The notes beneath the pieces were generated by a model, which saw only the letters and a list, made by a program, of their open reading frames with translations, was not told the DNA's origin and searched no databases. The translations under genes were made by a program, and so were the position numbers. Positions 3,431 through 44,945 of a stretch of 64,000 nucleotides of DNA are shown here, one piece after another; position 1 is the first letter of the stretch, and each line of letters opens with the position of its first letter. This DNA is from a virus. The stretch covers positions 1-64,000 of IMG/VR virus record IMGVR_UViG_3300045988_171725. One strand, 5' to 3'.

Positions 3431-3793
3431 CGAGTATATACTCCGTACTTTATTCTTACTTTATACGAGTATATACTCTTAGTAATCATAGTTCCGTACT
3501 TTTATTATACTCTTCTAGTATATATACTCTTATTACAAGGATTTATTTAATTATATAAATAGACTACTAAATAAATTTAGTAGTCTTAATTACTCACTAC
3601 GTTCGTAATTATATTTAATATTTAATATTTTATTTTTATTACTTAGCTTATTACAAGTAAAGAGTATATATTACTAGTAAACTTAATATGAGTATATATA
3701 AATAATATATAAATATAATAATATAAGAGAAATATATAAAGAGAGTATAAATAAATAGTAGTTAGTAATACTCTTTATATACTCCGTACTAGT
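3431..3793. repeat. AT-rich iteron region (palindromic GAGTATATACTC family); putative replication origin
   Basis: GAGTATATACTC at 3432-3443 and 3468-3479. Variants at 3517-3529, 3662-3674, 3690-3700 and about 3741. TATATACTCCGTACT at 3436-3450 and 3776-3790. Extremely AT-rich core 3540-3760 with hairpin AGACTACTAAA-N-TTTAGTAGTCT. No credible ORF. Confidence 0.5.
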
Positions 3794-13768: not shown

Positions 13769-13838
13769 AAGGTAGCTCCTTTGCCGACGACCGCTTCGAA
13801 CGACCTGATTGTGTCGGCTTGGCTTTGCTTTCTGCAAA

Positions 13839-13910
13839 AACCCATGAGCGCCGCGCATTGCTGCGCATCGGACTTGCACCGATTGCTCTTACGAGCAGGC
13901 CTTGCGGGTT
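13839..13910 (-). other. compact multi-hairpin RNA element in an intergenic spacer
   Basis: Read in minus sense, an AACCC/GGGTT closing helix encloses three hairpins: GCTC-GTAA-GAGC, ATCGG-N7-CCGAT and GCGCA-GCAA-TGCGC. Two have GNRA loops. A U run follows. Confidence 0.4.
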
Positions 13911-14112
13911 ACGCCGTGTATTGATAAATAGTTGGGAAACCGTTATCGCGCTCAATTTCACAAGCAACTGCTTCGCAACGCATGTGAGCTTCCTCCCAAA
14001 GTTTATCTTCGCTTTCGGCACTTACTTCAAAAGTAAGCGTTTTGACTTTTCTCCACTCATCGTTCATTAAGTCGTGAGCTTCAAAATTTGCTGTAATTTT
14101 CTTTGTTAACAT
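13909..14112 (-). CDS. hypothetical small protein (67 aa)
   Basis: Weak AAGGAA RBS. Confidence 0.5.
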   Translation of the reverse strand: MLTKKITANFEAHDLMNDEWRKVKTLTFEVSAESEDKLWEEAHMRCEAVACEIERDNGFPTIYQYTA

Positions 14113-14706: not shown

Positions 14707-14735
14707 TTGACATCCGAACTAAAATATGTTATAAT
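14707..14735 (+). promoter_or_regulatory. sigma-A-type promoter P4
   Basis: TTGACA 14707-14712, 17 nt, TGtTATAAT ending 14735. Confidence 0.7.
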
Positions 14736-14763: not shown

Positions 14764-15666
14764 ATGACTTTTACAAATTATGATGATTTAATAGGCCAAA
14801 AATTTGGTAGACTAACTATAATTTCTGAAACCGAACCAAGACCCCAATCTAACGGCAAAAAGATGAGACAATGTATTTGTAATTGTGATTGCGGAACAAA
14901 AGGTTTTATCATTCCTTTTATCTATTTAACTCGTGGAATAAATAAATCTTGTGGATGTCTTGTAACAGAACGAAATAAACGCGGGGCAGATAAAAGAGAA
15001 GCGGTTAATAATAGGAAAGTTGAACGGCACGAAAGACGTTTAAAAAGAGAAGCCGAAATGAAAAGAATCGCAGAAGAAAAGCGCGGTGCCCGTCGTATCA
15101 AAAAAGAACAGAAAGAAACGGAAAAATGGCGTAAACGAGAATTAGCCCACGGAAATAAATATGAGTTCCACGCAAATTATGTAATTGGTTACACCCATAA
15201 CAATAATACGCCTTTTTATATAGACGTAGAAGATTATGAAAAAGTTAAACCTTTTACTTGGTATGACAGAAATACAAACGGAGTAAAAACGATTGCTACA
15301 AATATAAAAATTGACGGGAAGACACATTCAGTCGTAATGCACGTATTTCTTGGATATAAATATCATGATCATATAAACAATAATGAGTTAGATAATAGAA
15401 AAGTAAACTTGCGCCCATGCACTCATCATCAAAATATGTTTAATAAAAAAATTCAAAAAGACAACAAATATGGAATTATCGGAATAGGATATATGCAAAA
15501 AACTAATAAATGGATTGCAAAAATAGGCTATCAGTATAAAAATATTCATTTAGGGATATTCGATACAAAAGAAGAAGCAATTGTCGCTCGTCTTAAAGCA
15601 GAAAAAGAGTATTTTGGAGAATTTGCACCACAAAAGCAATTATTCTCTCAGTACGGAATTGAATAA
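14764..15666 (+). CDS. HNH-AP2 type homing endonuclease
   Basis: N-terminal GQKFGRLTII plus CxC/CGC cluster. HVFLGYKYHDHINNNELDNRKVNLRPCTHHQN (HNH_3-like). GIIGIGYMQKTNKWIAKI...LGIFDTKEEAIVARLKAE (AP2-like). Paralogue of 21498-22466. Confidence 0.8.
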   Translation: MTFTNYDDLIGQKFGRLTIISETEPRPQSNGKKMRQCICNCDCGTKGFIIPFIYLTRGINKSCGCLVTERNKRGADKREAVNNRKVERHERRLKREAEMKRIAEEKRGARRIKKEQKETEKWRKRELAHGNKYEFHANYVIGYTHNNNTPFYIDVEDYEKVKPFTWYDRNTNGVKTIATNIKIDGKTHSVVMHVFLGYKYHDHINNNELDNRKVNLRPCTHHQNMFNKKIQKDNKYGIIGIGYMQKTNKWIAKIGYQYKNIHLGIFDTKEEAIVARLKAEKEYFGEFAPQKQLFSQYGIE

Positions 15667-20930: not shown

Positions 20931-21498
20931 TCTTGTCTATTTCCTTTTTTAATTTTTCGTTATTTATTTTGAGCAAATTTTCGGCTGCTCCACACGGATA
21001 AAATTCCGTGCATTTCCCGTTTCGATAAACGCATTCAGGAACGAGAAGCCCGATAAACTCTGGGCATAATTCTTCTACCTGTTTACATATTTCTTTCATA
21101 ACCGCTCTAGTTTCGACGGAAGCTTGCGAACACAATCTCTTATGAGACATAAAAATCAACTCTTGTGCGTTTATGCTCATTACGTGAGAAACTATCGTGT
21201 CTTGCGTTGCCTTTCTTCTATCATAATTATCTTGGCGATCATTACGCTGCGTTTGGACGTAATGATTTACCCCGATATGATGGCGAACAAAATGCACCGA
21301 GACGTAATATGGTATTTGCATCTTTATCCCAAACCATAATTCTCTGATTGGGCTATGTCCCGCTTCGAGAATTTTATGTTTCCATTCTGCCGTTGGAAGT
21401 TTCGCTGATGTTTTACCGACGGTATTTAATGTGCAAGTTTTACACCACATCCAATCTTCGTCGGTCGGGTGTTTTAATATTTCGACTTTAAAGTCCAT
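20923..21498 (-). CDS. divergent ThyX-like (flavin-dependent thymidylate synthase fold) protein
   Basis: GHSPIRELWFGIKMQIPYYVSVHFVRHHIGVNHYVQTQRNDR parallels the ThyX HxS..E...F.I......S.Q.VRHR....SQQSQRY block, but RHR is RHH and SQRY is TQRN. A later SHKRLCSQASVETR parallels R.C..AQ.EIR. Confidence 0.55.
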   Translation of the reverse strand: MDFKVEILKHPTDEDWMWCKTCTLNTVGKTSAKLPTAEWKHKILEAGHSPIRELWFGIKMQIPYYVSVHFVRHHIGVNHYVQTQRNDRQDNYDRRKATQDTIVSHVMSINAQELIFMSHKRLCSQASVETRAVMKEICKQVEELCPEFIGLLVPECVYRNGKCTEFYPCGAAENLLKINNEKLKKEIDKND

Positions 21499-22466
21499 CA
21501 GTACACCTCGTCTGCAAGAGATTTTATTTTTGGTTTCTCTATACCATATTGTTCGAATAAATCTATTTGCGGAGCATATTCTCCAAAGTATTTTGCTTCT
21601 GCCTCTAAACGAGCTTTTATAGCTTCATCCTTTTCTTTAAATCGTTTATGAAGTTTATAATCATCATCTATTTTTAACGTCGCCATCCACAATGAACGTT
21701 CTTTACACCAATGAACGCCGATAACTCCAGAAGTGTTTGTGCATTTTATTCCTTTATTGAAATTATTTTCTCTTTGCGAGCACTTGCGCAAATTGTTCCG
21801 ACGGTTATTTAATTCATTTCTATCTATGTGATCGTAATTTGAAAAACCAAGATATACATGTTGCCTTATCTTTTTCCCGTTTACAACCCCGCTTAACCTT
21901 TTCATATTGGTCCATTCTGTATTTTCAATCCAATAAATATCTTTTACTTTTTCATAATCTTCTAAATCAATATAAAACGGTGTTCCTTTTTGTGTATATC
22001 CAACAACATAATTTTCATGTATTTCATATTTATTTCTTTTTCTACGCTGTTCTCGTTCTTCTTTTGCTAAACAACCACAAGATAATCTACTTCCATATAA
22101 AATACTTCCGCCAGATAATTCAAATTGTTTTTTGTTTCCACATCGGCATTCACACATCCACATCCAATTATTTTGCTTATTTTGTTTTGTGCGATAAATT
22201 ACTTTGATACGGCTTCTAGGAATTCCGTGTTCCCACATTTTCCAACCCGTAATATCCTTAAAATAACGATTTTCTTTTTTATAACATCCGCAACTTATGT
22301 TATCCTCGTGTCTTAAATCATATGAGGATTTAATAACCTCTTTACCACATTCACATAAACACTTCCATTTTGTGACATGACCACCTTTTGGTGAAACATA
22401 AGTTGGTGCTCTTTCTATTACGGTAAGCCTCCCGAATTTTCGTCCAGTCAAATCTTTTAATGCCAT
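21498..22466 (-). CDS. HNH-AP2 type homing endonuclease (paralogue of 14764-15666)
   Basis: TGRKFGRLTVI, Cys clusters, YDHIDRNELNNRRNNLRKCSQREN, GVIGVHWCKERSLWMATL...FKEKDEAIKARLEAE. The second ATG (22466) has a GGAG RBS and avoids overlap with the upstream gene. Confidence 0.8.
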   Translation of the reverse strand: MALKDLTGRKFGRLTVIERAPTYVSPKGGHVTKWKCLCECGKEVIKSSYDLRHEDNISCGCYKKENRYFKDITGWKMWEHGIPRSRIKVIYRTKQNKQNNWMWMCECRCGNKKQFELSGGSILYGSRLSCGCLAKEEREQRRKRNKYEIHENYVVGYTQKGTPFYIDLEDYEKVKDIYWIENTEWTNMKRLSGVVNGKKIRQHVYLGFSNYDHIDRNELNNRRNNLRKCSQRENNFNKGIKCTNTSGVIGVHWCKERSLWMATLKIDDDYKLHKRFKEKDEAIKARLEAEAKYFGEYAPQIDLFEQYGIEKPKIKSLADEVY

Positions 22467-22467
22467 T

Positions 22468-23199
22468 TTAATTAACTCCATCTGCCCAAGAGCAAAATTT
22501 CGACCTGTAAACTTTCGTTAGTTTGACTTCTGTAACAAAATCACAATCAGTGACTGCGTTCATATATTTTGGTAACGCTGAATCGGAAGGATACTTCAAA
22601 TCACATTGAGAAGAACATCCCAAAACAACAACTTTACAATTTTTCCCAACTCTTGTCAGCACCTTCTTTGCTTTTCTCATGTCATAATTCTCGAATTCAT
22701 CTACGATTATAAAAGCATTATCTATGGTTTGTCCCCGCATAAACGTTTCGCCTGTAAAAATAACTTTCGCCGAACCAAATTTTTGCGCTTCCATATCGTC
22801 ATCACTAATAATTGTTTGGGCGGGATCATATCCCCATTGTAATATTGCCTGATCAAGAGCCGTCCTCATCGGCAAACATTTTGTGTTAAAATCTCCAGGT
22901 AACATCCCAATCGAAGATACCTCTACCGTTGGGTTAATTATATAGTACATTTTGTCAAACATTTTAAGTTCATTTGTCATAAGTAGTCCACATCCGACCG
23001 CTATACTAGTTTTTGATGTCCCAGCCTTCGCGTTTACAAAAATACCAATATTTTTCTCGTTGAAAATTGCTTTAATATAATCTTTTTGTTCATCGTCTAA
23101 TTCATAAGGGAATCTTTTCCAATAAGTATAATCCAATGGGTTTTTTAAAATTTCTATTTGTTTTCGTTCAGTATTTGCATTACCTTTTCTTGTCGCCAT
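22468..23199 (-). CDS. phoH: PhoH-like ATPase
   Basis: NAKAGTSKTS (Walker A), LPGDFNTKCLPMRTALDQA, FMRGQTIDNAFIIVDEFENY, LTRVGKNCKVVVLGCSSQCDL. Confidence 0.8.
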   Translation of the reverse strand: MATRKGNANTERKQIEILKNPLDYTYWKRFPYELDDEQKDYIKAIFNEKNIGIFVNAKAGTSKTSIAVGCGLLMTNELKMFDKMYYIINPTVEVSSIGMLPGDFNTKCLPMRTALDQAILQWGYDPAQTIISDDDMEAQKFGSAKVIFTGETFMRGQTIDNAFIIVDEFENYDMRKAKKVLTRVGKNCKVVVLGCSSQCDLKYPSDSALPKYMNAVTDCDFVTEVKLTKVYRSKFCSWADGVN

Positions 23200-23207
23200 A
23201 AATCACC

Positions 23208-23900
23208 TTATATCAATTCTGAAAAATCTGTTACCATTGCGTCTACTACGCCGAGTTGTAACTGTTCGTCGCCATTAATAAACCATTCGGTCTTTTTCTT
23301 CTTGTTGAGCAAATCTTTTGAAATCTTTGTGCGGCTGGCCACATGCTCAAACAATTTTGCAAGAGTTTTATTATACTGCGCCGTATGTGATTTAATCGTT
23401 TCTGCTTCGCCTTCGAATGCACCAGAACCTTGATGACACAACGCTTGCGAACTCAAAAGCGCAAATCTCTTATGCCCAGAAATCAATATAAAGAATCCAC
23501 CAGACATTGCAACTCCCATGTTATAAGTATAAATCGGCGTTTTGGAAAGTTTAATAATATCAATCATCTGGAAAGTCGCATCTATTTCTCCGCCATAAGA
23601 ATTTATCATAATTTTGATCGGCTTTCTATCGGATATAGGAATTTTATTATCTTCATCTTCTTTATTCCAGAAAATTATGTTTTTAACTAATGGAACAATA
23701 CTTTCACGATAAATTTCATCATTAAGCCAAATTACTCGATTATCAAGGTTTTTATAATATGAGTAAAGCGCGGGGTTGGGTAATACAGGATCGTTTTGTT
23801 TGCGTTCAATTAAATCACTCATGAGCGCATCAACGTTTTGCTGCAATTTTTGGAATTGAGATACAAAATCCAAATCTTCAATTATTTTTTTATCTGCCAT
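23208..23900 (-). CDS. clpP: ClpP-like serine protease
   Basis: INSYGGEI, NMGVAMSGGFFIL and LCHQGSG correspond to the ClpP INSPGG / G.AASM / IHQP blocks. AAGGAGA RBS before ATG 23900. Confidence 0.8.
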   Translation of the reverse strand: MADKKIIEDLDFVSQFQKLQQNVDALMSDLIERKQNDPVLPNPALYSYYKNLDNRVIWLNDEIYRESIVPLVKNIIFWNKEDEDNKIPISDRKPIKIMINSYGGEIDATFQMIDIIKLSKTPIYTYNMGVAMSGGFFILISGHKRFALLSSQALCHQGSGAFEGEAETIKSHTAQYNKTLAKLFEHVASRTKISKDLLNKKKKTEWFINGDEQLQLGVVDAMVTDFSELI

Positions 23901-23935
23901 ATTTTCTCCTTCGACAATTCTCATTGTCTGAAACC

Positions 23936-23964
23936 ATTATAACACATATTTGATACATCGTCAA
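23936..23964 (-). promoter_or_regulatory. sigma-A-type promoter P10 (minus strand, ClpP operon)
   Basis: The reverse complement reads TTGACG-17-TGtTATAAT. Back to back with P7. Confidence 0.7.
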
Positions 23965-24020
23965 GTATATCTGTAAAAAATATTAAAAAAATTTTTTTTA
24001 TTTTTTTTGTGTACAAACGC

Positions 24021-24049
24021 TTGACGGATTAAATTTTCTATGTTATAAT
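24021..24049 (+). promoter_or_regulatory. sigma-A-type promoter P7 (drives a non-coding unit)
   Basis: AAACGC-TTGACG 24021-24026, 17 nt, TGtTATAAT 24044-24049, with a long A/T tract upstream. Confidence 0.75.
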
Positions 24050-24055
24050 CCCACC

Positions 24056-24438
24056 GAAACTGAATAGTTATCAGCGGACGCACCACCGCTTTAACAATAG
24101 GATAGCCGCAAATGTTGCCGCCACACACCGACATATTTTGCGTCAGAGGATCGTGGACACCAAACAAAACCTCAATAAAAAAGACGGTGGGTATAGGAAG
24201 GCGAAGAAGAGAGCGCTTACCTCGATAAAGACGTTATGGATTCGCGTGTAACGAGAGGTATGACGATGTGAAATCATTGTTTATATGTGTGTTATAGCAG
24301 AACGGAAACTCAAGCAGGGGAAGTTTGTGAAAAGGGTATAATGCCGTCCCGTTATTGCATGGGAGCATTATACCCAAAACACAGAACCATTTTTCTCGCA
24401 AAGGAAGGTTTGTGTTTATCATTTCTTTTTGTTTTTTT
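24056..24438 (+). ncRNA. orphan structured RNA of about 380 nt, unknown class
   Basis: Bounded by P7 and an intrinsic terminator (11-bp stem 24377-24388 with 24407-24417, then a T run to 24438). No + strand ORF with an RBS. Internal hairpins include GGGTATAATGC...GCATTATACCC (24334-24375), AGCGG-N8-CCGCT (24073-24090) and TACCTCG...CGAGGTA. Confidence 0.55.
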
Positions 24439-24553
24439 ATGTAATTTTCACATTTAATAAAGTTTTTGGGTATAATTATAGGGTGGTTTGGGTGGGGTAA
24501 GAAGATATTCGATTGTATAATTAAAATTTAATAAAAATAAAAATGATAAATAC

Positions 24554-24582
24554 TTGACGACTTACGTAAAGCATGTTATAAT
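24554..24582 (+). promoter_or_regulatory. sigma-A-type promoter P8 (start of the long rightward operon)
   Basis: TTGACG 24554-24559, 17 nt, TGtTATAAT ending 24582. Confidence 0.7.
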
Positions 24583-24628
24583 GAGATTAGAATTAAAATA
24601 TGATTCCAATAAGGAGGATAAAAATGAC

Positions 24629-25231
24629 GTGAGAATATTTTTGGATTGCGATGATACGATTATAAACTCTTCTGAATGTATTATCGATTTATTAAATAAG
24701 AAGAATGGCACAAATAAGACGATTAAGGATTTGAAGGATTTCCATTATCGTTCAATTGATAAAACGTTAACCAACGAAGATGTTGTCAAACTTTTTGAAT
24801 CGGACGATTTTTGGAATTCCGTTAATTACAATAATGAATTTTTGAACATAAAGGATTTTATTGATTCCAATTTTGATGTAACGGTTGTTACTTGTGGCAC
24901 AGAATTAAATCTGAAAAAGAAAGCAAATAAATTAAATTCGCTTGGATATGGCAGTGGATATAATTTTGTTGGTATTTTGATTAAAGACGACTTAAATTTA
25001 TGTAAAAAATGTATAGATATGCACCTCGGTATTCAAATTGATGATAATATGAGTAGTATTGAGAATACTAACGCAGCAGTAAAAATACTTTTTCAAAATA
25101 ACAACAATTTTACATGGAATAGACCAAAGCCGAATATCGATAATTTATACATTGCCCAGACATGGGAAGAAATTCGCCAGATTTTAGAGTTTTTCAAGAA
25201 AAATCCAGAATTTATTTGCAAGGGGTACTAA
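24629..25231 (+). CDS. HAD-family 5'(3')-deoxyribonucleotidase-like protein
   Basis: GTG start 8 nt after AAGGAGG, giving MRIFLDCDDTIINS (DxDxT motif). The ORF-track TTG/ATG starts fall inside promoter P8. Confidence 0.55.
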   Translation: MRIFLDCDDTIINSSECIIDLLNKKNGTNKTIKDLKDFHYRSIDKTLTNEDVVKLFESDDFWNSVNYNNEFLNIKDFIDSNFDVTVVTCGTELNLKKKANKLNSLGYGSGYNFVGILIKDDLNLCKKCIDMHLGIQIDDNMSSIENTNAAVKILFQNNNNFTWNRPKPNIDNLYIAQTWEEIRQILEFFKKNPEFICKGY

Positions 25232-25769: not shown

Positions 25770-27435
25770 ATGCCAGTTTTGCAAAACCTGTATCAGGTTT
25801 ATAAATTACCATCGAGTTTTATCGTGGAAAACAATTTAAAAATCGATAATTATACTCGAAAACGAGCGATTCAAGACGGAAATCTTGTAAGTGTCGGCGA
25901 CAATATGGTATTTTATAAAATTCGGGATTATTATGGGGACACAAGAAGTCACAAAGAGATTTTCGACGCGGTGCAAAACCTTCGAACGACTCTTCGCATT
26001 TGTAAAAGAGAAGGTAAAATACTCGAAGGGCACATCGTAAATCAACAAATTCAGGATATTCTTTTTGTGAAAGACATAATTGTTGTAGTTTGCGAGAAGA
26101 AATCTGAATATCTAAAAATTGGTACAAAAGGATTTGAAATAAACGGAGTCAGATATACGAGACTTTGCGCGGGAGCTGGAAATTTGCGCCGTAACAATGC
26201 GATTTATGTAAACGAGAAGCTTTACCCTTATCTTTACGAAGTGTTTATGTGCGGGCTCGCAGACAAACTTAAAGAAGCGGTTCTTCCAAAACTCAGCGCG
26301 TATTTTGCGCTTTCCTTTTCGTCGGTTTTGTGGGTTAGAACGCCGCGAGTTTGCGTGATAAAAGACTTCGAAACGACGCTCCCCAATCAGAACGTCGATT
26401 TCATTTGTCGAAAGGAAGAATTGGACGACGAAGGAAAACCTCGAACGAAACATTACATCGAAAAACGCGTGATGGATTTAACGCTCAATAGTGCGGACGG
26501 GCAAGGTTTGGTAGATCCCGAATTTAGTAAGTTGTGGGCGGAAGATATGCAGCTCGATTACGTGCCTTCATCGTTTGTTGTCAGAAGTTCGTTCGTGAAA
26601 GGGAACCTCGTTCCGTTTGATTTTAAGGCTTACGCAGCGGAACATGGAATAGACAAAATTAAGGATAGATGGGGTGTTGAATACCCGTTGAATGAAATTG
26701 ATGTTTTATTAAGCGAGTCGCAGTTCAAAGAATATAAGGAATATTCGAGCTGGCAGGAGTATTTGTATTATTTTAACAAATACAAGCTCCGTTGGGGTGT
26801 CGCCCGTTACAATAAGAAACACGATGATGAATATGTTCTCGCGAATTACCAATACATTCAAGCGCTTACCCTTTCGAAGGAAGATATTCACGGGTTAATT
26901 CAACCGACAATCGATTGGATTAAAAACATTTGTTCGGGCGATGATTTATACAGCCTTCTTTTTATGTTCGGAGGCAAAAGCGAAGACGTGACTTATGAGA
27001 GAATGTACTCTTCGGCGCAATCAACGTTTATGAAAGCGATCGTAAAAAACAACGAGATGCTGAAAGACGCGCACGTTCAGCGGAAGATTTACAAAAACAT
27101 CGTTGAGTGTATAAACCGTGCGAAGATTGGCAAGATTTGGGTGAGAGGAAATTACCAGTTTATGATTTCTGACCCGATCGCGCAGTGCCAGTCGGCGTTG
27201 GGATTACCAGTTAAAGGGGAAATTCCAGCCGAACACGTTTGGTCGAATTTTTGGAATGAACGACGAATTGAGGGTTATGTTGACTGCTGTCGTTCGCCAA
27301 TGATCGATACAAGTGAGCATAACCCGTCGAAGTTATATAAAAGCGAAACCACAGAAAAGTGGTATCAATATATAAAGAGTGGTTTGGTGTACAGCATATA
27401 CGATGTCGCGACATTTAAACACTCGGATAGTGACT
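25770..27435 (+). CDS. RdRP/YonO-like single-subunit RNA polymerase, exon 1
   Basis: AAGGAGA RBS. SFVVRSSFVKGNLV (R...KG.L), CCRSPMIDTSEH (R.P). Ends ...FKHSDSD + T, the first base of the Phe codon of DFDGD. Confidence 0.65.
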
Positions 27436-28424
27436 TAACGATATAGGTCCTGCGATTGGTGACAATCGTATGCAAACTCGGTGAACCCATAAATGTGGGG
27501 TGTGGAGATTAATCTCTGCTAACGACAAAAATCTTCTTTCGATTTTCGCAATATAAATACGAGAAGGTGATATTGTTGGATTTTGATAAGATAGATTTTT
27601 CTGTAAAGAAATATGATAAAACTCGTAAATATTATGTTTATGAGTGGTATAATGTTGAAACTGGCGCTGTCTTTTATGTTGGTAAAGGTAGCGGTGGTAG
27701 ATACAAAAGAGTGACAAATAGTTCTCGAAATATATATTTTTTAAGATATTACAACAAATATAAATGTGATAGCAGGATTTTATTTTGTGGCTTGACGGAA
27801 GAAGAAGCATATCTTAAAGAAAAAGAAATTATAATAAAATATAATAAACTCGGCTATCAATTAACGAATTGTGACGAAGGAGGGCACCCTGGTGGAGCTA
27901 ATTCTGGAGAAAAAAATGGTATGTATGGAAAGACCCATACTCCAGAAGTTCGTAAAATCCTAAGAGATGTTAATCTTGGAAAGATTGGCAAAACAAATTC
28001 AAACGCAAAGTATTGCGATGTTTATGACGATAAGTTTGAATTTATAAAACATTTCGATTGTATAACCGATGCAATGAATTATATTGGTGAAATAGAGAAC
28101 AGAACATATAAGAGTATGGTAACGTATTTTTGGAGATATCAAAACGGAACCATAGATATTATACTAAATAAGTATCATATAAAAATTTATAGAAAATCGA
28201 GAGAAGACAATGACGTGCCAAGCGTTTCTAAAAATGGAAATGAAGGTACAACGACTATCGAAAGCGTATAAATAGAGAAATACTATTTAAAGTAAGCAAG
28301 TAGAGTACCAATGAGTGAAATTCTCAACGGGAAGTGCCGAGGTTCTTATATTTGGTGAAAGAATATAAGAATATAAAATAGTCTATACCCCTAATAAATA
28401 TCGGGCGACCGAGGGTAGGAATAG
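27436..28424 (+). mobile_element. group I intron carrying a GIY-YIG homing endonuclease ORF
   Basis: P1 helix: exon GACU (27432-27435) pairs with GGUC (27446-27449) and ends in a U-G wobble. The last intron base is G (28424). Contains a GNRA hairpin 27453-27468 and a 10-bp hairpin 28343-28371. Removing it restores the reading frame. Confidence 0.65.
27567..28271 (+). CDS. GIY-YIG homing endonuclease (I-TevI-like, NUMOD3 repeats)
   Basis: YYVYEWYNVETGAVFYVGKGSGGRYKR (GIY...YVG). GEKNGMYGKTHTPEVRKILRD and GKIGKTNSNAKY (NUMOD3-like). The start may be GTG 27567 or TTG 27576. Confidence 0.8.
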   Translation: MILLDFDKIDFSVKKYDKTRKYYVYEWYNVETGAVFYVGKGSGGRYKRVTNSSRNIYFLRYYNKYKCDSRILFCGLTEEEAYLKEKEIIIKYNKLGYQLTNCDEGGHPGGANSGEKNGMYGKTHTPEVRKILRDVNLGKIGKTNSNAKYCDVYDDKFEFIKHFDCITDAMNYIGEIENRTYKSMVTYFWRYQNGTIDIILNKYHIKIYRKSREDNDVPSVSKNGNEGTTTIESV

Positions 28425-29566
28425 TCGATGGAGACATTGCCCTTTCAACAGATAACGAATATTTCTTGAAAGGTGCTCACAGAAATGAAAACATAATAAC
28501 TTATGAAAAAGGCATTGCCCGTAAGGAAGAAATTTCCCAGAAAAACTTCGTAAAAAAAGACCTTATGGGCTTTGGTACGGCGGTCGGCAGTCTTTCAAAT
28601 ACCGCGACGATTATTTACGCGATGATCGGGATTTTCAATAAACCAGAACAGGAGCCGCAACGCCAAGAGTTATACACGCGAATAAAGCTTCTTCGCGAAT
28701 ACGTCGGGCAGGAAATTGACAGAGCGAAACTCGGAATAAAGCAGCAAAAACTTCCAGTCGAGTGGAGAAAATATATTCATGTAAATAAAGATGATACCGA
28801 TGAAATAAAGGCGGAAAAATATAAACACAATTCCATGGTAATTAAAAAGAAACCTTATTTCTTTCGTTATCTTTATCCTGAATGTAATAAAGAGTTTAAA
28901 CAATTTGAAAATGGCTATAACATTATATCAAAAGATATGTTTGGGCTGAAATTAAAAAAGCTTTTTGCGAAACCAAACAAAACGGGAAAAGAAATGACGC
29001 TCGTTAGACAATATCAAAAGAATTGCCCTCTGATTGTTTCAAATTGTACAATGAATATCTTATGTAAAGAATTTGAGAATGTTGATTTTGACATAAAATT
29101 TGGTAAATCTAATGTGAATATGCTTAATCTTTATCAAAATGAAGGTTTTAAAGTCAATTCATCAATTCTTACGAAGTTTCGCAACGCTTATCGTAAATAT
29201 AACAATAAAAAGACAATAATTGCGCTCGATGATGTTTTTGAAAACAAAGACGAGGACGATATAAAGAATATTTACAATCTCGTTCTCGATACGGCAAAGC
29301 AGGAAATCCAGGAAGAAATTTTCGGGTTCGGGTTAAAGCCCAAGGAAATGCTTTTTTACGTCGGTCAGCTTGCGAAGGAATATACAAATTTCAATTGGAG
29401 TTTTGTTTGGGACATAATGGATTCAATCGTTCCCGAAGGCGTTGAACAAGGGAAAAGTTACGCACCAGTTCGTTCGGAAGACGGAGAAGAATATCTCGGC
29501 GAGAAGTTCATGCTCAAAGAAGTTATAAAGAGAGCCGAAGGGGAGGTTTATACGAATGTTGAATGA
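28425..29566 (+). CDS. RdRP/YonO-like RNA polymerase, exon 2
   Basis: Begins TC GAT GGA GAC, which completes DFDGD. The frame is open for 69 nt upstream of the first possible start codon, and no RBS is present there. Confidence 0.65.
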
Positions 29567-43720: not shown

Positions 43721-43823
43721 AAACGTGTAAATTGCGGGACAGCAGGTTCGAAACTGTTTCCTTTTGACTCCTTACCGAGAGGATTACCGCTTTTTATATA
43801 TTTTTGTAAGGAGGATATTAAAA

Positions 43824-44945
43824 ATGCCAGCGAAGAAAAATTATAATGTCTCTAAAGAAGAATTATATGACTTATATATAATTCAAAATAAAATGGTTAG
43901 AGAGTTATCAGATTATTACAATATCCCTTTTGGCTCAATGGTAAAGATTATACGTAAATATGGATTGAAAAAAGGGAAAGAGGCTAATCAGGCGAATATT
44001 CAACGTGCTTTCGACGAAAAGGGTATCGGGAAGATGAACGCAGCTCACAAAAGAAATAAGGAATTTTTAGAAGAACACGGTTATTATCCACCACAAAAGC
44101 CAGAAGTAATCGAACGTAGAAAACAGACAAATATTAAAAAATTTGGGTGTGAAAATCCATTTGGGAACGATGAGATAAAAGAAAAAATTAAACACACAAT
44201 GCGTGAAAATTTTGGAACTGATTATGCTGGTTCGAGTGTGGAGTTACAAAATCGTTCTCAAAAGGTTATAATGGAGAAATATGGTGTATCTAATTATGGT
44301 GAACTTGCATTGTCGGAATTTACGAGAGACATTTTGTCATCAGCAGAAAAGTTAAGAAACTTCATTGTTAAAGGTGGATATAAAACAACGGAAATTGCGT
44401 CAAAAGCCATTGGTTGTGGACATTGCACTTTATGTAGACGATTGAATAAATTTGAATTATGGGATTTAATTGATAAATTTAGTTCACATTATGAAGAAGA
44501 AATTTCGAAATTCTTAGATAAATTAAACGTAAAACACTATAAGACCAAAACAAAAATATCTCCATATGAAATAGACGCTTATTGTCCTGATTATAACATT
44601 GGAATTGAATTTAATGGCGATTATTGGCACTCGACATTGCAAAAAGAAAAGGATTATCATTTGTTGAAATATAATCGTGCCAAAGATAAAGGTGTATTTA
44701 TATTTTATGTATATGAGTATGAGTGGGTTTCTAATAAACGTGTAGTTAAAGAACGTATTAAAAAATTATTTAACGGAGATTTTTGGTTTAATGGTGGAGA
44801 TTATATAATTGAAAATGGAAAAATCCCAGAGAATATTCTTATAGAAAATGGATATAAAATTATAGATGAATTACCACCTAAAAGTTATATTAGTGGACCA
44901 TATGAAATATATAATGCTGGATATAAGCATTGGTCCAAAAAATAA
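43824..44945 (+). CDS. homing-endonuclease-like protein (HTH + PD-(D/E)XK-type nuclease), paralogue of 32317-33444
   Basis: GGAGGA RBS before ATG 43824. SKEELYDLYIIQNKMVRELSDYY. C-terminal SHYEEEISKFL...YEIDAYCPDYNIGIEFNGDYWHS. Confidence 0.65.
   Translation: MPAKKNYNVSKEELYDLYIIQNKMVRELSDYYNIPFGSMVKIIRKYGLKKGKEANQANIQRAFDEKGIGKMNAAHKRNKEFLEEHGYYPPQKPEVIERRKQTNIKKFGCENPFGNDEIKEKIKHTMRENFGTDYAGSSVELQNRSQKVIMEKYGVSNYGELALSEFTRDILSSAEKLRNFIVKGGYKTTEIASKAIGCGHCTLCRRLNKFELWDLIDKFSSHYEEEISKFLDKLNVKHYKTKTKISPYEIDAYCPDYNIGIEFNGDYWHSTLQKEKDYHLLKYNRAKDKGVFIFYVYEYEWVSNKRVVKERIKKLFNGDFWFNGGDYIIENGKIPENILIENGYKIIDELPPKSYISGPYEIYNAGYKHWSKK

Follow-up and report, generated by a model that had tools for sequence, protein, structure and literature searches.

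What is encoded by a stretch of phage DNA that begins with a full-consensus promoter, ends in a hairpin and a U-rich tail, and holds no gene-like open reading frame (ORF) in between? The stretch lies at positions 24021 to 24438 of the first 64,000 nt of IMG/VR virus record IMGVR_UViG_3300045988_171725 (hereafter, the window), which is part of a ~146-kb phage genome near-identical to IMG/VR UViG_3300045988_172778. A sequence-only reading of the window had proposed a promoter-to-terminator unit for a ~380-nt structured RNA of unknown class, and the conservation peak, the covariation, the lack of an Rfam match, and the tests for coding presented here bear it out. The unit is very probably a real structured RNA gene, maintained by selection, and its family is one that Rfam lacks. 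As to its function, we consider it evenly balanced whether the RNA would act as a sensor domain joined to a conditional terminator, that is, as a riboswitch-like or a protein- or RNA-responsive attenuator, possibly with short and long isoforms.

The unit sits in a 700-bp gap between the leftward and rightward arms of the genome, flanked, as had been read from the sequence, by the divergent promoter of the ClpP operon and the promoter of the long rightward operon. The promoters and the predicted transcript are as follows.

24021 to 24049, plus strand: sigma-A/sigma-70-type promoter of the RNA, consisting of TTGACG, a 17-nt spacer, and the extended −10 box TGtTATAAT (11 of 12 matches, plus the TG).
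24056 to 24438, plus strand: predicted transcript of ~370 to 383 nt, a structured RNA that coincides with the conservation peak, has no Rfam match, and is not coding.
23936 to 23964, minus strand: divergent promoter of the leftward ClpP-like/PhoH/ThyX operon.
24554 to 24582, plus strand: independent consensus promoter of the rightward NT5C/deoxynucleoside monophosphate (dNMP) kinase/YonO operon, found in the same place in all lineages inspected.

The RNA promoter, present as earlier described, predicts a transcription start (+1) at ~24056 to 24057. The string TTGACG-N17-TATAAT occurs 3 times in the 64 kb against 0.00 expected, all 3 within 650 bp in the gap between the arms, and nine promoters of the window, that of the RNA among them, are full-consensus with an extended −10 box. 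An equivalent promoter stands directly upstream of the conserved block in the other lineages. A further promoter-like site at 24447 to 24476 is doubtful as a second promoter, given its unconserved −35 box and a G at the essential second −10 position in four lineages.

The RNA is the best-conserved DNA of the locus. In a position-wise profile of six relatives, identity was 0.88 to 1.00 at 24050 to 24400 versus 0.5 to 0.85 in flanking coding DNA, with sharp edges at the predicted +1, just downstream of the −10 box, and at the end of the 3′ hairpin. Relatives found via the flanking proteins share 92 to 95% nucleotide identity in the RNA while the ClpP protein is only 68% identical. Twenty distinct RNA sequences from five lineages were collected, the divergent copies being reached through a graded series of homologues of the downstream NT5C-like protein. 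The copies reached in this way, on contigs designated L with a number, are those of L102, L105, L112, and L114 (the main type); L117 and L120; L100, L109, and L110; and L108, whose 5′ end is cut by the contig end. In every homologue the RNA lies between the ClpP-like gene and the NT5C/dNMP kinase/YonO RNA polymerase operon, always upstream of and co-oriented with that operon, in the same position and orientation. The more distant syntenic relatives L104, L116, and L118 (NT5C protein, 40 to 44% identical) have short or unrelated intergenic DNA at this place, with no nhmmer match to the RNA. The sequence-only reading had looked to relatives for conservation and compensatory change; both were found, in 20 sequences and five lineages, and on this point the proposal stands.

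Scans of IMG/VR with 16- to 22-mers from four conserved blocks returned the same five or six contigs, the remaining matches being chance by nhmmer. A scan of GTDB genomes gave one match, to a phage-like contig binned with a Bacteroidaceae metagenome-assembled genome (MAG), so that the RNA is neither a piece of a host gene nor an attP copy of one for a host RNA. A metagenome collection added six more contigs of the same clade, and no similar DNA was found among the 50,697 phage genomes of INPHARED (blastn, “distant”). Judged from these sequences, the RNA family is real, under strong selection, and confined to one phage clade.

Covariation supports a fold of 12 helices with a long-range pseudoknot. 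The plus strand folds better than shuffled sequences (z = −2.35) and the minus strand does not (z = −0.68); this asymmetry and the frequent G·U pairs identify the plus strand as the functional one. The helices of the 5′ and central parts, the linker, and the two helices that follow it are listed here.

24060 to 24074, plus strand: P1, 5′ hairpin CUGA/UCAG, replaced in a by-eye alignment by AAAUU/AAUUU in L100 and AAAAUAU/AUAUUUU in L117.
24083 to 24190, plus strand: domain closed by P2, CCACCG (24083 to 24088) with CGGUGG (24185 to 24190), as drawn by RNAalifold.
24107 to 24142, plus strand: P3 hairpin, with outer stem CGCAA/UUGCG, inner stem UGCCG/CGACA, and the 8-nt loop CCACACAC.
24123 to 24128 with 24287 to 24292, plus strand: pseudoknot PK1, in which ACACAC of the P3 loop pairs with GUGUGU.
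24146 to 24173, plus strand: P4, GAGG/CCUC with an inner UGG-NCA-CCA stem, invariant, so that covariation is silent.
24199 to 24218, plus strand: P5 hairpin AGGCG/CGCUU with the purine loop AAGAAGAGAG, weakly supported.
24219 to 24259, plus strand: P6, made of P6a ACCUC/GAGGU (24219 to 24223 with 24255 to 24259) and P6b CGUUA/UAACG (24232 to 24236 with 24249 to 24253).
24263 to 24280, plus strand: P7 hairpin ACGAUG/CAUUGU with loop UGAAAU and compensatory changes in L120 and L108.
24293 to 24323, plus strand: linker a, with the conserved CGGAAACUC (24303 to 24311), and purine strand b, GGGGAAG (24317 to 24323).
24324 to 24329 with 24380 to 24385, plus strand: P8, UUUGUG with CACAGA, enclosing P9.
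24334 to 24375, plus strand: P9 hairpin, in which GGG/CCC changes to GGA/UCC and the upper stem UCCCG/UGGGA to UCCUG/CAGGA.

Helix strands were located programmatically, and the spacer lengths between them are almost identical in the five lineages. In alignment A4, which we anchored on the proposed strands and which therefore leans to the model, 97.3% of cells are standard pairs and 26 of 66 pairs change on both sides, against 6.5±1.8 in column shuffles (0 of 500) and 3 to 9 with partners slid by 1 to 3 columns. RNAalifold on a plain, unanchored MAFFT alignment of 15 sequences recovered P2, P3, P4, P5, P6a, P6b, P7, P9, and the inner 3′ hairpin, with 18 compensatory pairs. The strongest covariation among all helices is that of P8, which becomes CGCACA/UGUGCG in L120, GUUAAA/UUUAAC in L108, and UAUGU/ACGUA in L100, with 6 of 6 pairs changing on both sides. 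All five pairs of the P3 inner stem likewise change on both sides across lineages. PK1 reads ACACAC/GUGUGU in 16 sequences, GCAUAC/GUAUGC in L100, L109, and L110, and AUACAC/GUGUAU in L108; its 6 pairs form everywhere, three of them compensatory. P6a turns to AUCUC/GAGAU in 8 sequences and to AUCAA/UUGAU in L108, and P6b to CGUCA/UGACG and CACUA/UAGUG in others. P9 is the strong internal stem, GGGTATAATGC/GCATTATACCC with a TCCC/GGGA extension, that had been noticed by eye.

The remaining helices vary in their evidence. P1, the weakest and judged by eye, is not conserved in sequence in the divergent lineages, where an AU-rich hairpin takes its place. P2 is invariant save for G-C/G-U changes, so covariation speaks neither for nor against it; within the domain it closes lie P3, P4, and AGAGGAUCGUGGACACCAAACAAAACCUCAAUAAAAAAGACGGUGGG, where the RNA is most conserved, and a small alternative hairpin, GCGG/CCGC, may form there. 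P5 has C·A mismatches in two lineages and no compensatory changes. Loops and junctions are near-invariant (for example, AGAGGAUCGUGGACACCAAACAAAACCUCAAUAAAAAAGA in all lineages), and P6 carries a conserved loop, UGGAUUCGCGUG, and an internal loop at 24224 to 24231.

That internal loop is the site of an insertion. In L005 (~3560 to 3605) and L087, a perfect 42- to 43-nt hairpin (CGAUGUUUUACC...GGGGUAAAACAUCG, flanked by UUUUGU/ACAAAA) is inserted at the place corresponding to 24223/24224 of the window, accompanied by a U-A to C-G change in P6b. One of these contigs is otherwise almost identical to the window, which thus differs from its closest IMG/VR record by this insertion/deletion (indel). 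Such an insertion is the behavior of a peripheral expansion segment in a structured RNA.

Two further pairings were considered. A long-range helix from the covariation scan, CAUAUUUU/GAGGUAUG, was rejected: it is rich in AU and GU pairs, is inconsistent in L100, and excludes the better-supported P3 and P6a. The invariant GCGGAC at 24074 to 24079 can form 5 of 6 pairs with the PK1 partner GUGUGU (24287 to 24292), and RNAalifold, which cannot draw pseudoknots, draws this pairing; in L100 it becomes GCGGAC/GUAUGC, a G·U to G-C improvement. It may represent a second alternative state that competes with PK1.

A coding function was rejected on both strands. The region contains mechanical ORFs of 28 to 56 codons on the plus strand and 44 to 68 codons on the minus strand, none with a Shine-Dalgarno site or a conserved start. 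The absence of a gene-like plus-strand ORF with a Shine-Dalgarno site, as claimed in the sequence-only reading, was upheld, with the correction that its peptide “MDSRV” is really part of an 11-codon ORF, MDSRVTRGMTM, with its ATG at 24236. A 44-amino-acid minus-strand ORF (24277 to 24143, MISHRH...FLLRFCLVSTIL) has a hydrophobic tail and is intact in most lineages, and a 37-codon plus-strand ORF also recurs across lineages; near-invariance of the nucleotides is enough to account for their persistence. Third codon positions show no excess of substitutions (counts of 19/18/11, for the 44-amino-acid ORF, and 15/14/8). Indels of 1, 2, and 43 nt fall inside the mechanical ORFs, and the 44-amino-acid ORF suffers three separate 1-nt deletions and the 43-nt insertion. 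In the L100 lineage, read by eye, this ORF has no in-frame start codon and is preceded by TAA, and it is not among the ORFs listed for L100. No minus-strand promoter was found within its reach.

Neither is the RNA one of a catalogued class. At gathering thresholds, Rfam 15 gave no match on the RNA over the whole window. Permissive searches (E ≤ 10) of 23850 to 24650, 24050 to 24500, and the divergent homologues L120, L117, and L108 gave no plus-strand match on the RNA; the best scores were 11 to 21 bits versus thresholds of 35 to 90, on the wrong strand or outside the RNA. The families thus covered include 6S RNA, transfer-messenger RNA (tmRNA), RNase P, signal recognition particle RNA, group I and II introns, T-box, all riboswitch classes, GOLLD, ROOL, OLE, raiA, HEARO, and the PyrR site. 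ARAGORN found 0 tRNA or tmRNA genes in the window. The earlier failure to match the RNA by eye to a known class is therefore confirmed in the window and in three divergent homologues. No record of this RNA was found in the literature or in the covered parts of two large catalogues of candidate structured RNAs.

Several more specific identities were also weighed. A TnpB/IscB guide RNA is excluded, as TnpB, confined to L100 and L110, is an insertion that lies downstream of both the RNA and the G-rich element described below and is missing from the sister contig L109 and all other RNA-bearing loci. A retron or diversity-generating retroelement RNA is excluded by the lack of a reverse transcriptase in any syntenic locus, where the neighbors are ClpP-like, PhoH, NT5C-like, dNMP kinase, and YonO-like RNA polymerase genes. 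A CsrB-like sponge is not supported, the GGA motif, at 10 in 386 nt, not being enriched, and nothing points to an antisense target, as complementarity of the RNA to the rest of the window is at chance level. The TnpB of L100 (2747 to 3850) and L110 (1247 to 2350) is of the IS605 family (367 amino acids, with OrfB_IS605 and Cas12f1-like TNB domains), has its own promoter, and is inserted between the G-rich element and the NT5C promoter.

What argues for a regulatory role is the 3′ end, whose elements are as follows.

24379 to 24415, plus strand: composite terminator-like hairpin, outer ACACAGA..CC/GG..UUUGUGU and inner UUUCU/AGGAA.
24416 to 24438, plus strand: interrupted U-rich tail directly after the 3′ hairpin.

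A “clean intrinsic terminator” had been claimed here. A 3′ hairpin followed by a U-rich tail is present; clean it is not, being composite, missed by a simple terminator scan, and built on a 5′ strand that it shares with the pairings of P8 and strand b. The hairpin pairs ACACAGAACC with GGUUUGUGU, and the six bases that open the pairing, CACAGA, double as the 3′ strand of P8; its 5′ half overlaps both that strand and strand e (24391 to 24397). Upstream, GGGGAAG-UUUGUG (24317 to 24329) is a near-copy of the terminator 3′ half, AGGAAGG-UUUGUGU (24402 to 24415), so the terminator 5′ half (CACAGA...UUUUCUC) can pair with either copy. In constrained folding, the antiterminator (AT) state comprises b:e, P8, and P9, and the terminator (T) state comprises P9 and the terminator hairpin.

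The duplication is present in every lineage in a lineage-specific sequence: GGAAG(G)UUUGUG in the window, AAGGGAAAUG twice in L120 and L100, GGAAAGGCGC twice in L108, and GGGAAAG twice in L117. The 10-mer repeats AAGGGAAAUG and GGAAAGGCGC were matched by ≤4 of 2,000 shuffles. The downstream strand thus remains complementary to a strand whose upstream mate already covaries with it, for which reason we read termination as conditional; such a strand is the classic terminator/antiterminator signature. These folding models predict, in all five lineages, an antiterminator that uses a strand of the terminator and so excludes it. The AT and T states have energies of −33.8 and −33.6 kcal/mol in the window, −28.6 and −31.4 in L117, −33.5 and −23.5 in L100, −37.2 and −29.2 in L108, and −41.5 and −27.3 in L120. 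A composite hairpin with a U-rich tail is seen in the window, L100, and L117.

The mechanism that we infer from this arrangement would run as follows. The RNA would be transcribed by the host primary-sigma RNA polymerase from the consensus promoter, presumably early. Its 5′ and central 270 nt would form a compact multihelix domain, P2 to P7, locked by the pseudoknot between the P3 loop and the segment after P7, and the last 120 nt could adopt two mutually exclusive folds. In the AT state, b (24317 to 24323) and UUUGUG (24324 to 24329) would pair with UUUUCUC (24391 to 24397) and CACAGA (24380 to 24385) around P9; in the T state, the same 3′ partners would pair with AGGAAGG-UUUGUGU (24402 to 24415) to give a terminator hairpin before the U-rich tail. 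The 5′ domain would sense a putative effector (a metabolite, protein, or RNA) that biases the choice of fold. Polymerase would then either stop at ~24416 to 24438, freeing the RNA, or read through the G-rich element towards the nucleotide-metabolism/YonO RNA polymerase operon.

A number of observations weigh against this account. The effector is hypothetical, and a sensor of ~270 nt would be larger than any riboswitch aptamer known to us. At the 3′ end, the simple scan found no terminator, the U tails of L108 and L120 are poor or spaced from the hairpin, and the AT state is favored by 8 to 14 kcal/mol in L100, L108, and L120, so termination in these three would need a strong kinetic or effector-driven bias. 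The anchoring of A4 has been noted, and five lineages of a single phage clade provide only a small number of independent events. Downstream, the operon has its own consensus promoter in every lineage, the first gene begins ~190 to 250 nt past the terminator, and L100 and L110 tolerate an IS605/TnpB element between the RNA and the operon. No directly downstream gene that depends on read-through was found at the locus, given the promoter at 24554 to 24582 and the tolerated TnpB. Because of that promoter and that insertion, coupling to the operon is not essential and the RNA is no simple obligatory leader. Both facts favor the stand-alone gene, not a leader, of the sequence-only reading, a claim that needs qualifying: the conserved antiterminator alternative argues for regulated read-through.

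Since the RNA cannot be a simple obligatory leader, a trans-acting role stays alive, and we regard it as a serious rival, if on the unlikely side. The RNA would then be a stable, stand-alone molecule (such as a scaffold for a ribonucleoprotein, or a decoy or sponge that binds the ribosome, the polymerase, or a protein of the host or phage) whose terminator merely ends the gene, and the alternative 3′ pairing would reflect refolding after release, with b:e, P8, and P9 forming one long 3′ arm. The consensus promoter, the hairpin with its U tail, the independent promotion of the next operon in every lineage, and the tolerated TnpB all fit such a gene, and the near-total invariance of loops and junctions fits recognition by a conserved macromolecular partner. 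Folded at minimum free energy, the complete 3′ domain of the window retains the AT pairing, with a small hairpin added in the tail, and an expansion hairpin in a peripheral loop is typical of stable structured RNAs. Yet a trans-acting role leaves unexplained why the downstream strands e′/f track the upstream b/c in every lineage, which a mature AT fold alone would not need, and an AT fold that forms first during transcription would block the terminator and make a dedicated terminator self-defeating. No partner is identifiable, and the RNA has no significant complementarity to other parts of the window.

The DNA that follows the RNA contains one more conserved element.

24468 to 24497, plus strand: GG(G/A)U(A/G)UAAU followed by GGGUGGUUUGGGUGGGG; in the window, GGGTATAAT followed by the G-rich run GGGTGGTTTGGGTGGGG.

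The G-rich run (24481 to 24497) is single-copy in the window and is followed by ~55 nt of very AT-rich DNA (tract, >85% A+T). GGGTATAAT is a copy of the P9 5′ strand and turns to the GGA form together with both P9 strands in one subclade; it has three copies at the locus, two on the plus strand and one on the minus strand, all of which become GGATATAAT together in that subclade. A TGTAAT variant in four lineages would cripple a −10 box and keeps a G·U pair with the P9 3′ strand. The element is missing from the RNA-bearing L108, and the G-rich run is present in the RNA-less L104, directly behind a consensus promoter, so that the RNA and the G-rich element are separable modules; the element is only tentatively counted with the RNA unit. 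The region from 24468 to 24553 may be a G-quadruplex, R-loop, or origin-like element. A search for duplexes between the RNA and the G-rich element yielded nothing but gapped pairings that are inconsistent.

Processive antitermination in cis, by which polymerases from 24021 would become terminator resistant and those from 24554 would not, is an improbable alternative. The HK022 put and Bacillus subtilis EAR elements are antitermination RNAs of this kind. Like them, the RNA is a structured, here pseudoknotted, RNA right after a (presumably early) promoter, heading a co-oriented long phage operon, in this case a rightward array of >35 kb, and such a role would explain tandem strong promoters with the RNA behind only one. 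The known elements are 70 to 120 nt long and need no antiterminator pairing, whereas this RNA is three to five times larger, has a base-pairing antiterminator, and shows no detected similarity to them, the Rfam searches being negative. The TnpB insertion, with its own promoter downstream, does not fit tight coupling.

Similarly improbable is a role for the RNA as the control module of a transcription-primed replication origin. Read-through into the G-rich run and the AT-rich tract would produce a stable R-loop or G-quadruplex that primes or activates replication, and a signal of the host or phage, sensed by the folded 5′ domain, would decide between terminator and antiterminator, a logic analogous to that of ColE1 RNA II in a 146-kb phage. 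ColE1 RNA II is a structured primer precursor, and both are long structured transcripts with alternative folds, located where strand bias switches and followed by a G-rich segment and an AT-rich tract; here, however, the origin function is only hypothetical, the G-rich element and the RNA are separable in relatives, and the genome is that of a large phage and not of a small plasmid. In a less exotic form of this idea, the RNA would read the nucleotide pool or the state of infection and would be larger than any riboswitch-type sensor seen so far.

Very unlikely is an element acting as DNA, either a replication origin or a protein-binding region, in which the inverted repeats would be protein sites or cruciforms and the transcript incidental, or priming or activating an origin. 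The two transcription arms diverge at the locus, where cumulative GC skew has a local minimum, the unique G-rich run and AT-rich tract lie just downstream, and the three copies of GGGTATAAT change together. Against such an element, many helices use G·U pairs, which are A·C mismatches on the other strand; the minus strand folds no better than shuffles; conservation starts at the predicted +1 and stops with the 3′ hairpin; and it is hard to see what a long-range pseudoknot with nested compensatory helices would mean in double-stranded DNA. The RNA and the G-rich element also occur independently. Least probable of all, and largely refuted, is a protein-coding or type I toxin-antitoxin locus, in which the 44-amino-acid hydrophobic peptide would have the plus-strand RNA as antisense or a small plus-strand ORF would be translated: the two recurring ORFs and the type I modules carried by SPbeta-like prophages are outweighed by the lack of third-position bias, Shine-Dalgarno sites, a minus-strand promoter, and a start codon in L100 and by frame-breaking indels.

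With a conditional terminator as the preferred reading, the RNA is likened in logic to attenuating riboswitches and T-box leaders, and as a large phage-borne RNA to GOLLD and ROOL; by the tests for membership it belongs to none of these. As in the attenuating leaders of Firmicutes, a structured, sensor-like 5′ domain is followed by a terminator hairpin whose 5′ strand alternatively pairs upstream. The domain of P2 to P7 with PK1, conserved and with covariation, lies upstream of the expression platform; the host is of the Firmicutes type as judged by promoters and Shine-Dalgarno sites; and there is a tertiary pseudoknot, as in many aptamers. Unlike those leaders, this RNA matches no riboswitch or T-box model, its sensor candidate of ~270 nt exceeds known aptamers, its antiterminator encloses the 42-nt hairpin P9 and has no T-box bulge, the promoter of the next operon lies 115 nt past its U tail, and any ligand is hypothetical. 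A T-box leader was rejected on the lack of an Rfam T-box match, the lack of the conserved bulge (expected T-box sequence, AGGGUGGNACCGCG), and a d segment that differs in every lineage; a downstream GGGUGGU string is only superficially like the T-box core and lies beyond the terminator.

EutX and Rli55 of Enterococcus and Listeria are likewise orphan units in which a promoter, a sensor, and a conditional terminator are not fused directly to a coding gene, and here too short and long isoforms would differ by a downstream element, namely, GGGUAUAAU and the G-rich motif. EutX and Rli55 have a recognizable adenosylcobalamin aptamer and a defined protein-binding site, whereas neither the sensor nor the downstream element has an assigned nature here, and the latter is missing in the RNA-bearing L108.

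The large ornate RNAs GOLLD, ROOL, OLE, and raiA have cryo-electron microscopy structures, with homo-oligomeric assembly shown for GOLLD, ROOL, and OLE (PMC12286853). The RNA resembles these four in being a large, multihelix, pseudoknotted non-coding RNA in its own expression unit, with no assigned function, in phages of Firmicutes or in gut or rumen settings. It differs in matching none of their Rfam models, in its length (~370 nt versus 580 to 800 nt for ROOL and GOLLD), in not lying beside tRNA genes (none in the window), in its much narrower distribution, limited to one phage clade, and in its terminator/antiterminator alternative.

A ~370-nt RNA with 12 helices and a pseudoknot is thus under stronger selection than the neighboring protein genes. 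The operon that it heads provides the phage with an RNA polymerase of its own and with enzymes of nucleotide salvage, and the phages concerned appear common in human gut metagenomes. It is, to our knowledge, rare for a non-coding RNA to be both large and of complex tertiary fold, and nearly all such RNAs that are understood are ribozymes, riboswitches, or the cores of RNA-protein machines. If the 3′ end is truly a switch, the RNA would represent a new sensor class and a handle on the timing or tuning of early expression in uncultured phages; if it acts in trans instead, it would be a candidate host-takeover or anti-defense RNA. On either reading it is a well-defined experimental target, with boundaries, helices, and diagnostic mutations specified. 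Its distribution is narrow and its architecture unusually rich, and it belongs to the broad kind of structured regulatory RNAs.

The genes on the two sides of the RNA are as follows.

23208 to 23924, leftward operon: ClpP-like protease gene, in an operon with PhoH, an HNH endonuclease, and a ThyX-like protein.
From 24629, plus strand: start of the rightward array, with an NT5C-like 5′-nucleotidase (GTG start at 24629), then a dNMP kinase and a YonO-type single-subunit RNA polymerase.

Further along, the rightward array contains exonuclease, terminase, portal, and tail genes. The G+C content of the RNA body is 0.42 to 0.45 versus ~0.23 to 0.33 in its flanks. The host is probably a gut Firmicute, given the TTGACx-17-TGnTATAAT promoters, the strong Shine-Dalgarno sites, the YonO relatives in Clostridium, Enterocloster, and Bacillus phages, and the names of gut samples. 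The single GTDB match, L017 (CAVKBM010000005.1), is a 62-kb contig in a “Bacteroidaceae bacterium” MAG; it has the phage locus with sigma-A-type promoters and probably reflects misbinning of a phage contig, not a Bacteroides host.

The only Rfam match in the window at gathering threshold is a twister-sister self-cleaving ribozyme (RF02681) at 13835 to 13912 on the minus strand, in the leftward arm of small ORFs; it matches the full-length model with 62 bits versus a threshold of 34 (E = 1.2e-11). The YonO-like RNA polymerase gene (25770 to 29566, plus strand) is broken into parts of 558 and 366 amino acids by a ~1-kb insert that encodes a GIY-YIG/NUMOD3 homing endonuclease (27567 to 28271). 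In relatives (L009, L098, L100, L108, L109, L112, L114, and L118) the gene is intact (935 to 936 amino acids) or has a LAGLIDADG or NUMOD3 ORF at the same site, which therefore resembles an intron or homing-endonuclease hot spot; Rfam detected no group I or II intron there. A ~1.5-kb block at 21515 to 23051, with an HNH endonuclease ORF (21498 to 22481), sets the window apart, as an indel, from near-identical relatives such as L005 and L006. Two further homing-endonuclease ORFs, at 14764 to 15666 and 43764 to 44945, each have a consensus promoter directly upstream, at 14707 and 43692, respectively, and free-standing homing endonucleases are very active in this phage.

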